NCBI GenBank assembly: GCA_964016885.1
Contig: OZ024753.1
Span: 372,001 to 436,000 of the forward strand
Length of the DNA stretch: 64,000 bases
Source: Eledone cirrhosa
Taxonomy: Eukaryota
Reading direction: 5' to 3'
The translations under genes were made by a program, and so were the position numbers. This document shows, piece by piece, positions 2,401 through 63,204 of this stretch. The notes beneath the pieces were generated by a model. The model did no database searches. It was not told where the DNA came from and saw only the letters and a list, made by a program, of their open reading frames with translations. How positions within the stretch are numbered: the first letter of the stretch is position 1; each line of letters begins with the position of its first letter.

Positions 2401-2436
2401 TCTTCTGCTGAAGGACTAGCGTCCGAAACGTTAAGA
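2401..2436 (+). ncRNA. Minimal type I hammerhead ribozyme with a core variant (CTGCTGA)
   Basis: TCTT-CTGCTGA-A-GGAC(TAGC)GTCC-GAAA-CG-TT-AAGA. The paralog at 38504-38541 (-) has the canonical CTGATGA and shares ~150 bp of flank. Confidence 0.7.
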
Positions 2437-2740
2437 CCCTCTTCCTGCTATTGCAAGCATCAACATAATATATTCCTTCTATATACTGTACCGATTGTTT
2501 GTTATTTCTGTTTACCTTTTACACACACACACACACACACACACACATTATATATATATATATATATATATATATATATATATATATATATATATATATA
2601 TATACACACACAGATATCCACTGTAAGTTGTGGGGTCTATTCTGCATGAAGAACTCAATGTAATCCATATGTTGAAAATGTTGTAGGTTAAGATAAATCT
2701 CAGAAAACAATAAAACATTAAAAGGAAAACAGAGTCATGA

Positions 2741-2985
2741 TATAAGTTAAAACAATGAAATAAAAAAATCAAGTCATTAGAGATATATTTCACTGCTTTA
2801 CGATCGTTTCTAGGTGATGATAATACATTGTATCTATACTCAGTTATTGATCTATGTTAGTTTACATAGATCAATAACTGAGTATAGATACAATGTATTA
2901 TCACCATCTAGAAACGATCGTAATCGTAAAGCAGTGAAGTATATCTCTAATGACTTGATTTTTTATTTCATTGTTTTAACTTATA
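2741..2985. repeat. ~120-bp-arm fold-back palindrome ending in (TA)n
   Basis: Arms 2741-2856 and 2865-2985 are near-perfect reverse complements with an 8-nt spacer. Confidence 0.9.
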
Positions 2986-4118
2986 TATATGTATATATAT
3001 GGCTAACGGGACTCACACGTGCATTAATTACAAAAGAATTTGTTTCCATTTCTTCCTCTTCTCACTATGTATCTTTTTCTAAACGGCCGGAGCTTAGCCG
3101 TCGGGGTCCTGACTTTATATATATATATATATATATATATATATATGTATTATATAAATGAAAAGTATAGAAATTATTGTAGCAAGAAGCCAACAGTATT
3201 CCATAATATATAAGTGACTATAGCGTCAAAATGGAAAAATAGTTAACGTAAGATGTGGGAGAAATAATTCAAACTCAATTCAAAAAGAATCGGGATATAG
3301 ATTCATCCAACAGAATTTAGTGAAATCCAGGGAAAAAATCAATAGAGCCTTAACTCATGATAAAATAAAGTTTAAAATACTCATCCTTCAATTTGGAAAA
3401 ACTACAAATGCTCTGTATAGTCTTGAAAAGACTATTTCACGAAAACTTTCAGTGGGGATGGTCACGGTTGGAATTCGATCCTCAGCAGAGCTCAACACGA
3501 TAGCCAAAATCTCACTGGTTATAATGTGCCAAAAAGGGAATTTAAAAGCAGGCTAGTTCAACATCATGCGTGATTATGAAAATATAACGCACATGCGGAA
3601 ACAGGGCTGGTGACGTCAGAATGAGAAGAATGTTTGTTTACATGAAACAACAGTCAAAAACATTCCGAAAAAAACTCTACAATAAGGAGTTCAGCAAAAA
3701 GCAGTATTATCGCGGTTATATATATATTATATATAATTAGAATTTCATTTCTCGCCCTAGCACAGCTGATACATAAAAGTATGCATACTTACACACACAC
3801 ACACACACACACACACACACACACACACACATACACATATATATATATATATATATTCATTTAAGTTTGGTTAGAACTGGTTATTACGTATAGCCAATCA
3901 TGGAAAAGCACTCGACGTGATGCAACTCATCCATCTTTGATGTTGAATTTTGTTGGTGGTGCGAGAACAGAGTTAATTATTATTGAGTAAAATGGCAGGA
4001 GGCCAGACAGGTGAAATTCCTTCAAAGATTTATTTCAGCAAACACTATGTACTTTTCAGTGGCCAGGTTACGTAAGATCCTGGTGGCATCATCAGGTATA
4101 TATTGTATAATAGTTATA

Positions 4119-4420
4119 TAATTGTTTCTACTTTTGGTACAAGGTCAGCAATTATCCCAGTTCATTACTGGTACTTTATTTTACCGACCCCGTAAGGATG
4201 AAAGGCAAAATTAACCTCGGCGGGATTTGAACTCAGAACGCAAGGGGTCATAACTCTGAGCTGCAAAGCATGGTGTCTGACGCTCTACCGATACTGCCAA
4301 ACCACCGCCCTAACAATAGCTATATAATTGTTTGTACTTTTAGCACGAGGCCAGCAATTATCCCAGTGCATTACTGGTACTTTATTTTATCGACCCCGTA
4401 AGGATGAAAGGCAAAGTTAA
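4119..4420 (-). mobile_element. Full SINE plus adjacent 5'-truncated SINE
   Basis: Consensus match; repeated flank (A)ACAATAGCTATATAAT around the copies. Confidence 0.9.
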
Positions 4421-4629
4421 CAATAGCTATATAATAAAGGAATGGTAAACACAATCCAAGAGGCTATAAGAAGAGAAAGCAAATAAAAAAAAACATAGGA
4501 AAAAGGTTTTTGACTCGAAGGCGATGAAGAGGGCGAGGAAGGGGGTATACATAGAACATTTACAGCCCCTTCCAGACAGCTCAGTTCAGGTGGTTAACTT
4601 ACAAGTCGATGAAAGGGATGTCTATATTT

Positions 4630-4838
4630 ATGGCGGTATCGGTAGAGAGTCGGACACTATGCTTTGTAGCATAGAGTTACGGCCCTTTGCGGTCTGAGTT
4701 CGAATCCTGCCGGGGATAACTTTGCCTTTCATCCTTACGAGGTGATAAAAATAAAGCACCAGTAATGTACTGGGGTCGATTTAATCGACTTTCCTCTCCC
4801 CCCCAAATTACTGGCCTAGTGCCTATACTAGAAATCAT
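4630..4838 (+). mobile_element. tRNA-derived SINE flanked by a long duplication
   Basis: Consensus match TGGCGGTATCGGTAGAG...GTTCGAATCC...; flanks ~4558-4625 and ~4839-4897 are duplicated. Confidence 0.85.
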
Positions 4839-59990: not shown

Positions 59991-60217
59991 CAATGTAGTA
60001 ATGTAACAATAAATTTAATGCGTTTGTGATTCAAGAGAAGTAACTCCTCTGTAATTTTTTCTGTGTAAGGGGATTAATTATTGAAGTCTTTTAAAAGTTA
60101 TGCAATTTTTATGAGCTGACGATGTCTGATGATAATGTATATTGTACTGAATAACGTTGATTAATCGGTTAATGTTTTCAACTCATTAAAGCAATTAATT
60201 TCTAGTTTATGTAGATA

Positions 60218-60864
60218 CTAGCTGAGGTACCCGGCTTCGCCCAGGAGAACAGAGAAAACGACTGTATTGGATGTGTTGTCTAGTATGAGGTGAGACCGTA
60301 ATGTGTGTGTGAGAAAGACATAAAAAAAAACAAAACAATCATAAAACTTCCTTATTAAGCTGGAGGAGTAAACTGCTGATTAAATGGTAGCATTGGCCTT
60401 GGATTTTAAATGTTGTGAAATAACCATTCTTTGTCAGCTCCAAAGGACGTCATCTGAAATACAGCAATATACCGCATAACATTGCTTCCGAAGTGTTGCT
60501 TCGTTAGTACAGACTATAAGTAGTATATGGATAAAAGCTAGAGGGTAGATTAATTTCAAATAGTATCAATATTTTCTTTGTTCTGTAAAATCAAAGATTG
60601 TAAAACGACTTTATAAAAGCTAACACAATAATGTTAAACCTTCCTATAGATCAAAGGATCGATAGTTTAAGCCGTTTCTAGACTTTCGTGGGACGTTACT
60701 CTCTCTCTCTCTCTGAATATCTGACACTGTAATTGTATCTCTCTGTATAACGGCCTATCTCTCTCTTTCTGCCTCTGTGTGTCTATCTCTCTCTTTAGAT
60801 GTGTGTGTGTAGGTTTCTTGTTATTCTACCAACCAACCAATAAACATCTCTCTATATATGTAGA
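60218..60864 (-). mobile_element. Non-autonomous Helitron
   Basis: - strand begins A|TC and ends GGGCGAAGCCGGGTACCTCAGCTAG|T (GC hairpin plus CTAG), inserted at AT. Confidence 0.75.
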
Positions 60865-61454
60865 TAAAAGAACCACAAACCTTTAAAACCGGGTTTTCTT
60901 TCTAATATCAGAATTAATTAAATTCGAAATTAGGAGCGTTACTTCCCTTGAAAAACTGATGAATTCAATAAGCAGACGTTAACTAAGAGTTATTTCCCTT
61001 AGAGACTGTGGTTTTTTAGCAAACCACTATTTTATCGCTACGATATCTTGGCGATCTTTGTAAACCAAAAAGGAGTGATAGAGAACTATGATACTGATGA
61101 TGTTATTATAGAGCGTAGAATCAGAGACATTAACATATTGCAGTGGCATAGTTCTGGTGTTAAAAAGGTCAGAGTATCGTTAGAAATAGAATAACAATCA
61201 CAGCAGACTGTTTGGGATAAATTTGGAAGATTTTAAAAAATTTGAAAGATGAAAGCACATTCTAGAGTCCATACATGGTGGAGTCGAAAGAGCACCGTAG
61301 TAATATTTTATAACTGGTGGAGGCATTCCTTCTCCAGGTCTGAACACAGCCGGTTGTTGTAGAAGAAGAAGAAAAAGAAGAAAAAGAAGAAAAGGAAGAA
61401 GAAAAAGAAGAAAAAGGAGAAAAAAAAGAAAAAAAGTGAAAGCGAGGAAGAATC

Positions 61455-61567
61455 TATCACAGTACTGGTGAACTAGTACTTGTTTTACCGACCCCTAAAG
61501 GATGAAAGGCAAAGTTGGTTGGCGTGGGATTTGAACTAAGAATGCAAAGAGCCGGAATGAATACGGT
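61455..61567 (-). mobile_element. Diverged SINE
   Basis: GGATGAAAGGCAAAGTT...GGGATTTGAACT core. Confidence 0.7.
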
Positions 61568-62815
61568 ATATATATTATATGGTATAAGTATGCCATAGAG
61601 TGACCAACTCAATTATGGATTGAGCGAATCCACTTTATTTACTCTGCATTCCAGAGGTTTCTTGCTTGAGTCAGCCAAGAACAAAGGTTGGCCCCTGCCA
61701 GGCTGACTTACCCATACACTATATTACATAAAGAGGATCATTAAGTGTTGTGTTTTTAAAAAATCCCTTCCTCGGTGTCAAAAATAACCCTTCTTACAAC
61801 GATTTTAGAAGTAGCATACTGTCCGATTTTATCGAATCAGAATTCTGTAGAAAACAAACAATACAAGGGAAATAACTCTGTTTTGTTTATATCATTGCAT
61901 CGTATTCTCCGGCTAATAAAGTCTTTCTGGCTACATCTTCCTTATGTGAAAGTACATTATTCTTGACTTACTAAATTAAATAAAGTTAAGTCTTTTTAAT
62001 GAAATATGCTAATTTTGAAATATCTAATTTAATTTTGATATGATGACTTAAAAACGCTCTTCTCACTTTGAAGTGATATATGCTCACTTAGAATTTCAAA
62101 TATATATAGCAGTATCGAGCTGTCCTCGCGAGGACTGCGCACTGGTTATTGTGAACGCATAAAATAATGAGCGAAATCGATAAAGATTTTGTTGAAAGCA
62201 GTGTCCCAGCATGGTCGAAATTCAGTGACTGAAACAAGCAAAAGAACAAAAGGAAGGTTGTGGAACGTTATGGAAAAACAGATCTGTTGTCTGCATTTAT
62301 AGGATTGTCTGTATGTGTGTGTGTGTGTTGGATTGTGCTTGTGTGTGTTTATGTATGCGGTGAACATGCGTCAAAGTATATGAGTGCCTGTGTATGTAAA
62401 CAAATGTAATATATAAATGCGCGCAAATGAATATGGGGATGGGCGCGTGTGAGAGTATGTGTGTGTGGGGGGATGGGCGCGTGTGAGAGTATGTGTGTGT
62501 GGGGGGATGGGCGCGTGTTAGAGTATGAGTGTGTGTATGTGGGGATAGGCGTGTGTGCGTATGTTCATATATGTGTTGTGAGAGTAAGTGTATGTGTGTG
62601 CATACATCTCTGTATATGTATGTAAGTATATATTAATGTATGCGTAAGCGTGAGCGATTCTCAATCAATCAGTAACTGATTCATTATCGATTACTACTAC
62701 CCAACAAGGTACAAGCTACTAACCTTCAGCACACACGTTTTTAATTTCGCAATATTGCGTAATCGAAGAAGTTATAAGTCTAGTTTTCGTGTTTATATAT
62801 ATAATGATATAAAAT

Positions 62816-63204
62816 AAATGGAAACTTTATTTATAAAACCATATTTATTTTATTATATATATTTCAAGGGCGACCAAGACAACATTGGTGCGCTTTCATC
62901 AGATAAAATACAAAGTTTGTTTTTTGAATTCTCTCTCTTTCTCCAGTGTCATTTAAATAAACGGTTGCTTTTCAATTATTTACATATTCATTTGCATATT
63001 CACACATAAGTTTAAATAATCCCTAATATATTTCCACTATCCAGTGAATTTCCAACCGATAAGGTATGATTTTCATGGGTATGTCTCTATATTTATAAAA
63101 CAAACTTTGTATTTTATCTGATGAAAGCGTACCAATGTTGTCTTGGTTGCCCTTGAAATATATATAATAAAATAAATATGGTTTTATAAATACAGTTTCC
63201 ATTT
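62816..63204. mobile_element. Inverted pair of family E HHR units
   Basis: Arms 62816-62924 and 63097-63204; HHR at 63111-63173(+) ATTTTAT-CTGATGA-AAG..ACCAA(7 nt)TTGGT..CTT-GAAA-TATATA-TA-ATAAAAT, and at 62847-62909(-). Confidence 0.8.

Follow-up and report, generated by a model that had tools for sequence, protein, structure and literature searches.

Type I hammerhead motifs with mostly self-complementary stem III in a window of the Eledone cirrhosa genome and their probable cleavage as double hammerheads

The window analysed here is a stretch of 64,000 nucleotides from Eledone cirrhosa (assembly GCA_964016885.1, contig OZ024753.1, positions 372,001 to 436,000), which is AT-rich, contains many (TA)n arrays and carries numerous type I hammerhead ribozyme (HHR) motifs; genome searches were made in this assembly of 3.0 Gb. 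An initial annotation of this window had listed 11 self-complementary sequences between GAA and the cleavage base and had proposed that each HHR family possesses its own palindromic stem III, which would act as a dimerisation code and insulate the families from each other. Each of the 11 listed sequences was recovered in that position, over a total of 17 type I HHR sites. The window was also searched with a strict finder for type I motifs, which required the core, a stem I no shorter than 4 bp, a stem II no shorter than 3 bp and GAAA..UH. The motifs and the Penelope-like element (PLE) frame lying among them are given below in window coordinates; the family letters are those of the initial annotation, whereas D, J, K, M, I2 and I3 are labels added in this analysis.

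2401..2436, plus strand: minimal HHR of the ACGT family with the decayed core CTGCTGA (GAA at 2425).
3410..3491, minus strand: HHR of family K with a long, non-palindromic hairpin stem III, absent from the initial annotation (3485, minus; 3 distinct copies in its cluster).
9802..9912, minus strand: HHR '9804' with ACTCGAGT and a domain II of 84 nt; this copy has a decayed stem I (GAA at 9817).
11171..11250, minus strand: HHR-like motif with a long non-palindromic domain III, probably decayed (strict finder, 11245, minus).
24230..24267, minus strand: HHR with U3-A8 core and palindrome ACCGGT, absent from the initial annotation (strict finder; cluster of 4).
24766..24808, minus strand: HHR of family F, ACTAGT (GAA at 24781; strict finder).
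25492..25534, minus strand: HHR of family J with non-palindromic AGAACT, the terminal-repeat HHR of an element with reverse transcriptase and GIY-YIG domains (strict finder, 25530, minus).
From 25284, plus strand: truncated inverted partner of family J, beside 25492..25534.
38504..38541, minus strand: minimal HHR of the ACGT family with intact core (GAA at 38516; strict finder).
38693..38801, minus strand: HHR of family I with ACAATTGT and an 82-nt domain II (GAA at 38708; strict finder).
46430..46472, minus strand: HHR of family F, ACTAGT (GAA at 46445; strict finder).
47223..48566, plus strand: 5′-truncated Penelope-like open reading frame (ORF) in two frames, reverse transcriptase followed by GIY-YIG endonuclease (Pfam).
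48953..48988, plus strand: HHR-like motif at the 3′ end of the Penelope-like element, ATATAT, with the non-canonical core CAGTTGA (GAA at 48976).
49844..49924, both strands: inverted pair of family D (49889 minus, intact; 49895 plus, truncated) between two (TA)n arrays (strict finder).
50296..50383, minus strand: HHR of family C with ACTACGTAGT, U3-A8 core, bulged stem II and a 57-nt domain II, in a tandem retrozyme with a period of ~591 (GAA at 50314).
51569..51650, minus strand: HHR of family A with ACTAATTAGT, downstream unit of a 556-bp tandem (GAA at 51587).
52125..52206, minus strand: HHR of family A, upstream unit of the 556-bp tandem (GAA at 52143).
52386..52467, plus strand: HHR of family A, inverted copy (GAA at 52449).
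52815..52898, minus strand: HHR of family B with ACCGATCGGT, inverted copy (GAA at 52833).
53346..53434, plus strand: HHR of family B, first unit of a ~485-bp tandem (GAA at 53416).
53834..53917, plus strand: HHR of family B, second tandem unit, in which one change each breaks the palindrome and stem I.
56279..56329, minus strand: HHR of family D with a 4-bp stem III and 8-nt loop, an interrupted palindrome (strict finder).
56640..56690, plus strand: HHR of family D, inverted partner of 56279..56329 (strict finder).
58189..58227, minus strand: HHR of family G, AGTACT (GAA at 58203; strict finder).
58476..58567, plus strand: HHR of family H with ACATATGT and a 61-nt domain II, stem I decayed in this copy (GAA at 58550).
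62846..62910, minus strand: HHR of family E with ATATATAT, one arm of a divergent inverted pair (GAA at 62865).
63110..63174, plus strand: HHR of family E with ATATATAT (GAA at 63155; strict finder).

The strict finder returned 19 matches in the window, 13 of which were perfect Watson-Crick palindromes; the other 6 were non-palindromic (three of family D, one each of J and K, and the motif at 11245 on the minus strand) and had been omitted when each family was taken to be palindromic, so that part of the claim had to be given up. In 60 block-wise local dinucleotide shuffles of the window, a comparison which the initial annotation itself had suggested, the mean number of matches was 1.7 (maximum 6), and palindromes were absent from all 60 as against 13 in the natural sequence, which upholds the claim that the 11 self-complementary motifs are genuine hammerheads. 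From 600 kb of unselected genome 58 matches were obtained, including 31 palindromes (35 when G·U pairs were counted), and 12 shuffles of this sample gave 3.5 matches and 0.17 palindromes; the window is thus about three times richer in such motifs than the genome average. No match was obtained in the window with the Rfam hammerhead models at gathering thresholds.

Twelve of the 17 listed sites passed the strict finder, with an open-ended stem I and stem II flanking the core, and the remaining five (2405, C, H, 9804 and PLE) were family members with a decayed or variant part. A canonical CUGANGA...GAAA...UH or U3-A8 core was present at 15 of the 17 sites, family C being included through its U3-A8 core, and the 2405 site was a decayed copy of an otherwise canonical family. 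Stem I measured 5 bp in C and 3 bp in PLE, while the stem I of H and of 9804 was found restored in relatives (CCCG/CGGG being the majority form in 9804), and the palindrome was retained in 13/15 aligned copies of H and likewise in 13/15 of 9804. As to their setting, 17 of 21 window motifs had (TA)5 within 300 nt downstream, compared with 30% of random positions, and many copies were short 3′ ends, often in divergent inverted pairs, that terminated in (TA)n. Truncation, inversion and microsatellite bias are described as traits of PLEs in the available text of Craig et al. (PMC8557442), and 5′ truncation, inversion, partial tandems and microsatellite bias were all met in the window. When the window was scanned with Pfam for host exons, none of 82 open frames was matched (101 frames listed), which lends no support to the location of solitary copies in host introns that the initial annotation assumed.

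The same families were then found throughout the assembly by exact-pattern searches, which yielded 1,147 matches for B, 24,717 for E, 17,313 for D, 1,211 for PLE, 20,089 for J, 3,221 for I plus I2, 7,472 for C and 6,347 for ACGT, at least 81,517 over the eight patterns, and the reversed-pattern control gave no genome match for any of them; at least 26 families were present in the genome sample. All variant counts per 100 given here and below refer to the first 100 matches listed for a family, those of E, D and ACGT having been tallied by hand. The palindrome was very uniform in the young families (B 99, C 98 and PLE 98, the last being ATATAT), and the ACGT family comprised ACGT (76), ACAT (10) and ATGT (6), indicating decay in both directions.

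Two kinds of host element were recognised. Non-coding head-to-tail tandems with one type I HHR per unit were found for A (556 bp), B (~483 bp), C (~591 bp), the F-type (482 bp) and an ACGCGT family (311 bp), and these tandems have the architecture of non-LTR (long terminal repeat) retrozymes; the F-type ACTAGT tandem, at locus L048, belongs to the same cluster as the F copies of the window. On the other hand, the ORF at 47223..48566 matched PF00078 (reverse transcriptase, E=3.9e-11) and PF01541 (GIY-YIG, E=1.4e-4, just under its cutoff), and the PLE motif lies 390 nt behind this frame. The J motif was likewise located 210-410 nt behind a frame with reverse transcriptase and GIY-YIG domains at several loci including L128 and L134 (GIY-YIG E=1.7e-4 and 1.9e-4), and both PLE and J are terminal-repeat (pLTR) HHRs of autonomous Penelope-like elements. 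Family D, the GCGC clade of E and I2 were found by tblastn at fixed distances from PLE-like frames, and from these matches and positions D, E and I2 are likely to be pLTR HHRs as well; no ORF was linked to G, H, I, 9804 or ACGT. That the families of the window are of known kinds, namely Penelope-like terminal-repeat HHRs and tandem retrozymes, is well supported.

Many families, whether in the window (9802-9912, 38693-38801, 50296-50383, 52386-52467, 53346-53434 and 58476-58567) or elsewhere (L036 and L054), had domains II of 49-95 nt, which were predicted to fold as long interrupted hairpins, or as two-branched junctions in 9804 and I3, the canonical stems being of 4 bp. Families with an odd-length stem III (ACCTCTGGT and ACCACTGGT) were also seen at L036:8153 on the minus strand, L099 and L040:2423 on the minus strand; at L099 the arrangement was that of a tandem Penelope-like element, with the motif between endonuclease-like and reverse transcriptase-like frames.

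The ORF-bearing PLE family departed from the canonical type I core. Its motif carried CAGTTGA in the window copy (48953-48988, plus strand) and at 10/10 loci (L113-L122), and CAGUUGA can be described, relative to CUGAUGA, either as a swap of U4 and A6 or as a 2-nt insertion before UUGAUG. Stem II, the GUGA tetraloop, the palindrome and GAAA..UA were all intact in this motif, and a canonical or U3-A8 core was kept by all other families examined. CAGUUGA does not appear among the core variants discussed in the available text of PMC3088659, and it may represent either a variant core or a non-catalytic relic.

Stem III was compared over 24 clusters with at least two distinct members, 40 singletons being left out. 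Self-complementarity was found in 16 of the 18 clusters whose domain III was 10 nt or shorter (13 with Watson-Crick pairs, 3 with G·U) and in none of the 6 clusters with a long domain III; the expectation for a random tetraloop is 0.14. In family E the 100 matches listed consisted of ATATGTAT (34), ATGCGCAT (33), ATATATAT (21), ATACGTAT (2), ATGTGCAT (1) and broken forms (9), so that 91 of the 100 were self-complementary counting G·U. The central bases of E vary between TA, TG and CG, and since these two bases are unable to pair in a hairpin, their change speaks for a helix between two RNA molecules. A tree of 58 E copies, built without stem III and representing few independent source copies, separated the GCGC clade from the rest (100/100), and TA and TG were mixed within a starred subclade. 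The two deep clades have a common stem I and different palindromes (ATGCGCAT as against ATA-TA/TG/CG-TAT); a mixed helix of ATGCGCAT with ATATATAT was predicted to cost 8.5 kcal/mol, and full cross-pairing was found between the TA and TG and between the TG and CG states. Selection on self-complementarity in the source copies, with no particular sequence favoured, would form part of the explanation preferred below. CpG decay was considered as the origin of the TG state and rejected, because its mirror product ATACATAT did not occur among the 100 E matches listed (0 CA against 34 TG), whereas the ACGT family shows both products.

A weak self-complementary monomer helix III was not found in families J, D and K. 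The stem III of J was AGAACT, AGGACT or AGAGCT, with a palindrome in 0 of the 100 matches listed, and dimerisation of any of these variants would produce a tandem purine-purine mismatch that is symmetric. The three window copies of D carried ACAGTTCTAGTCCTGT or its variant ACAGTTATAGTCCTGT, and no perfect palindrome was present among the 100 matches listed, the 4-bp stem with 8-nt loop making an interrupted palindrome. Loop 3 of D was TTCTAGTC in 85 of the 100 matches listed and loop 2 was variable (commonest form ~37 of 100); that loop 3 is nearly invariant and loop 2 free, though the 4-bp hairpin can form, suggests a function for loop 3.

Folding predictions were made for single motifs and for tandems. 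For 10 of the 11 palindromes on the list the monomer hairpin III had a predicted energy between +1.5 and +6 kcal/mol, with B at -0.9, and ACGT is unable to form a hairpin; the hairpins predicted to be stable were those of B, D (-1.4) and K (-4.2 kcal/mol). Helix III was in place in none of the 13 predicted folds of single window motifs. In all four natural tandems a constrained double hammerhead was predicted to lie below two single ones, by 9.5, 7.3, 16.1 and 20.7 kcal/mol, and the probability of pairing between the two palindromes in the free ensemble was 0.99 for A, 0.97 for ACGCGT, 0.21 for B and 0.02 for the F-type. These modelled energies, together with the short-stem clusters, are consistent with the initial suggestion that a self-complementary stem III serves double-hammerhead cleavage.

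We consider it probable that the window samples type I HHRs densely, those of pLTRs and of retrozymes alike, and that these would cleave as dimers of same-strand copies, insulation between families arising as a by-product. Where one transcript carries two copies on the same strand, the 5′ strand of stem I in copy 1 would pair with the 3′ strand in copy 2 and the reverse, and the two stems III would join into one helix; two active junctions would thus form and yield unit-length RNA. Each junction of this double form would combine the 5′ stem I strand, the core, stem II and A15.1 from one copy with U16.1, the cleavage base and the 3′ stem I strand from its partner, and it follows from such topology that both stems I are exchanged along with helix III. 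The non-coding retrozymes (A, B, C and F) would be moved by the machinery of autonomous Penelope-like elements, and most copies would be truncated or inverted 3′ ends beside (TA)n. The palindrome could drift (as through the G·U states of E), be reused by chance or tolerate symmetric mismatches (J and D), and the long-hairpin families (K and D), possibly also the 3-bp families (A, B and C), need not be obligate dimers.

Several points weigh against this explanation. The clusters behind the figure of 16 in 18 were enriched by targeted searches and are not independent lineages; J is a large non-palindromic family whose dimer helix was predicted at only -2.7 kcal/mol; and Pfam left 7 of 9 PLE-like frames beside HHRs blank, those beside D, E and I2 included. 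As to the folding, a palindrome repeated in tandem pairs by construction, other folds were preferred in the free ensemble for two of the four tandems (B and F-type), single-motif folds rarely did better than shuffles (z below -2 in 3/13), and the energies ignore tertiary contacts and co-transcriptional folding.

The proposal of a family-specific code was examined by comparing the palindromes between families. ATATATAT was common to E and the unrelated M, and ACAATTGT to I and the unrelated I3; two identical palindromes between families were thus observed among 20 palindromic families against 1.7-2.7 expected, a weak test in which collisions occurred at the chance rate and gave no sign of avoidance. 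Together with the several states of E and the non-palindromic J and D, these shared sequences contradict the claim that each family has its own palindrome; being neither unique nor universal to the families, the palindromes make no family code by themselves. Stem III and stem I were further considered jointly in a matrix of 372 inter-family pairs, drawn from 28 representatives, 4 of which were single copies picked as perfect or odd palindromes, and omitting 5 multi-copy clusters with a long or non-Watson-Crick domain III. A fully paired mixed helix III was obtained in 5 pairs, both stems I reached at least 3 bp in 15, and both conditions coincided in none. Because stem I would be exchanged too in a dimer, this makes insulation plausible as a by-product, and it is likely, as far as such in silico pairing goes, that divergence has insulated the families through the combined effect of stems I and III. 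The initial claim of insulation is therefore retained in part, with stem I needed besides the palindrome.

A stricter reading, in which selection keeps a distinct palindrome for each family, only same-family pairs cleave and lone copies stay silent, would account for the 5 fully paired mixed helices in 372, for the deep E clades with one stem I and two costly-to-mix palindromes and for the uniformity of B, C and PLE; we hold it to be unlikely, since ATATATAT and ACAATTGT are shared at a rate expected by chance (a weak test with n=20), TA, TG and CG states occur side by side in one E clade, with full cross-pairing of TA with TG and of TG with CG, J and D lack a perfect palindrome, and tandem neighbours are copies of each other, so that same-family pairing would follow anyway. 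It is quite conceivable, although we lean away from it, that families with a helix III of 2-4 bp (A, B, C, D, K and perhaps the 8-nt class) cleave in monomeric form, in which case the palindrome would do no more than speed tandem processing and lone copies would not be silent. The available text of PMC7229834 gives rates of ~0.8 and ~0.1 per min for monomeric retrozymes of coral and mussel, and 22% cleavage for axolotl HHR_Amex2 (2 bp plus tetraloop) on its own, but the axolotl dimers cleaved much better than monomers. Hairpin III is predicted to be stable for B, D and K and the large domains II could provide tertiary contacts, but the tetraloop of A, B and C is kept self-complementary, which a monomer would not need, and the double form is predicted to be more stable for A and B. 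For A, B and C this alternative overlaps with dimer-type cleavage as preferred here, and the initial claim that solitary copies are silent is doubtful for the longer stems.

It is also possible, but improbable in our judgement, that the palindrome serves RNA-RNA pairing more than catalysis, bringing template RNAs together for reverse transcription, with template switching that would give partial tandems and inverted ends. The stems and palindrome of PLE are kept in 98 of the 100 matches listed in spite of the CAGTTGA core at 10/10 loci, loop 3 of D is far more constant than loop 2, and published PLE HHRs are described as poor cleavers even as dimers in the available text of PMC4209133; all other families examined, however, keep a canonical or U3-A8 core, and Naiad elements without canonical HHRs also show inverted and tandem insertions, as stated in the available text of PMC8557442. 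Chance matches in AT-rich, repeat-rich DNA might be suspected from low-complexity words such as ATATATAT and ATATAT in a (TA)n-rich window and from the absence of Rfam matches, but the probability is negligible: palindromic matches were absent from 60/60 local shuffles, thousands of exact family matches stand against none for the reversed controls, and paired changes occur in the stem III of E. This candidate was refuted by the shuffles of the window and of the 600-kb genome sample.

Beyond dimer-type cleavage itself, we can imagine a kin-recognition handshake in which RNA copies would identify each other by stem I plus helix III, in trans and in cis, so that dozens of co-resident Penelope-like and retrozyme families would process or co-load only their own RNAs, and that new specificities would arise through G·U states (TA to TG to CG to GCGC, as in E) without an inactive step; the handshake could even outlast catalysis, as in the CAGUUGA family. 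We regard this as speculative and rather unlikely. A literature search found no family-specific HHR dimer code and no cephalopod retrozymes, a weak negative since part of the search returned off-topic papers.

A double hammerhead was reportedly described by Forster et al. in 1988 for avocado sunblotch viroid (ASBVd) and newt satellite 2, in which the pairing of two copies is said to rescue an unstable monomer helix III. One family is present in each of these systems, compared with at least 26 in the genome sample here. Palindromic loop 3, the dimer model, many families per genome, opposite-strand pairs and the U3-A8 variant have already been stated for PLE HHRs (Cervera & De la Pena 2014, PMC4209133), and the available text of that work agrees with the present motifs in the type I topology, the extra nucleotide between 9 and 10.1, the palindromic helix or loop III, the predominance of single truncated copies and the spacing of opposite-strand pairs 100-700 bp apart. 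Many of the present families differ from that description in being non-minimal, with palindromes of 8-10 nt and a domain II of 49-95 nt; in addition, one ORF-bearing family has the CAGUUGA core, and J and D show symmetric mismatches instead of a palindrome.

The animal non-LTR retrozymes, as far as covered by the available text of Cervera & De la Pena 2020 (PMC7229834) and of Li, Clavereau & Pollet 2026 (10.64898/2026.07.22.740005), are likewise non-coding tandems with one type I HHR per unit that coexist with PLEs; they show dimer-dependent cleavage when helix III is weak. The units of 482-591 bp found here exceed the 170-400 nt of PMC7229834 and fall within the 51-972 bp of 10.64898/2026.07.22.740005, in whose available text retrozymes are derived from pLTRs, and no cephalopod is mentioned in the available main text of either work. 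The legend of Fig. S8 in PMC3088659 (Perreault et al. 2011) describes repeat-type hammerheads whose palindromic stem and loop III vary across ribozymes and are read as double hammerheads, with a 10-bp dimer helix in Aedes aegypti, and is silent on family specificity. Varying palindromic loops 3 and dimer cleavage are thus already published, precedent for the dimer reading being given in the available text of PMC4209133, PMC6765202, 10.64898/2026.07.22.740005 and PMC3088659.

Since motifs of this sort are already known, the finding alters little by itself and is of use as material. What remains of interest is the natural series of E, the domains II of 49-95 nt, the mismatch-bearing helices of J and D and the conserved CAGUUGA core. 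A single genome offers helices on the same stem I that are cross-compatible and others that are not (E), as well as palindromes that are each combined with two different stems I (E/M and I/I3), natural sequences with which the role of the PLE hammerhead and family-selective dimer cleavage become directly testable, and natural orthogonal ribozyme pairs would serve as parts for RNA logic.

Some minor observations were made in the window. Decayed-looking CTGATGA..GAAA sites of other families were seen at 38931, 4095 and 43712, and ACGT after GAA also at 38911, all on the minus strand. U occupied the cleavage position (NUU) at 51574, 52130 and 52462 in A, 38697 in I, 58194 in G, and 2432 and 38509 in the ACGT family; NUU is a slower cleavage triplet than GUC or GUA. 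Other frame fragments resembling non-LTR retrotransposons were located at 23016-23609 (minus), 14096-14596 (plus) and 25499-26239 (plus), the first alone with a weak DUF6451 match. Two minisatellites unrelated to the hammerheads were also present, one of 43 bp in 9 copies at 45378-45764 and the other of 19 bp in 15.6 copies at 31257-31553.

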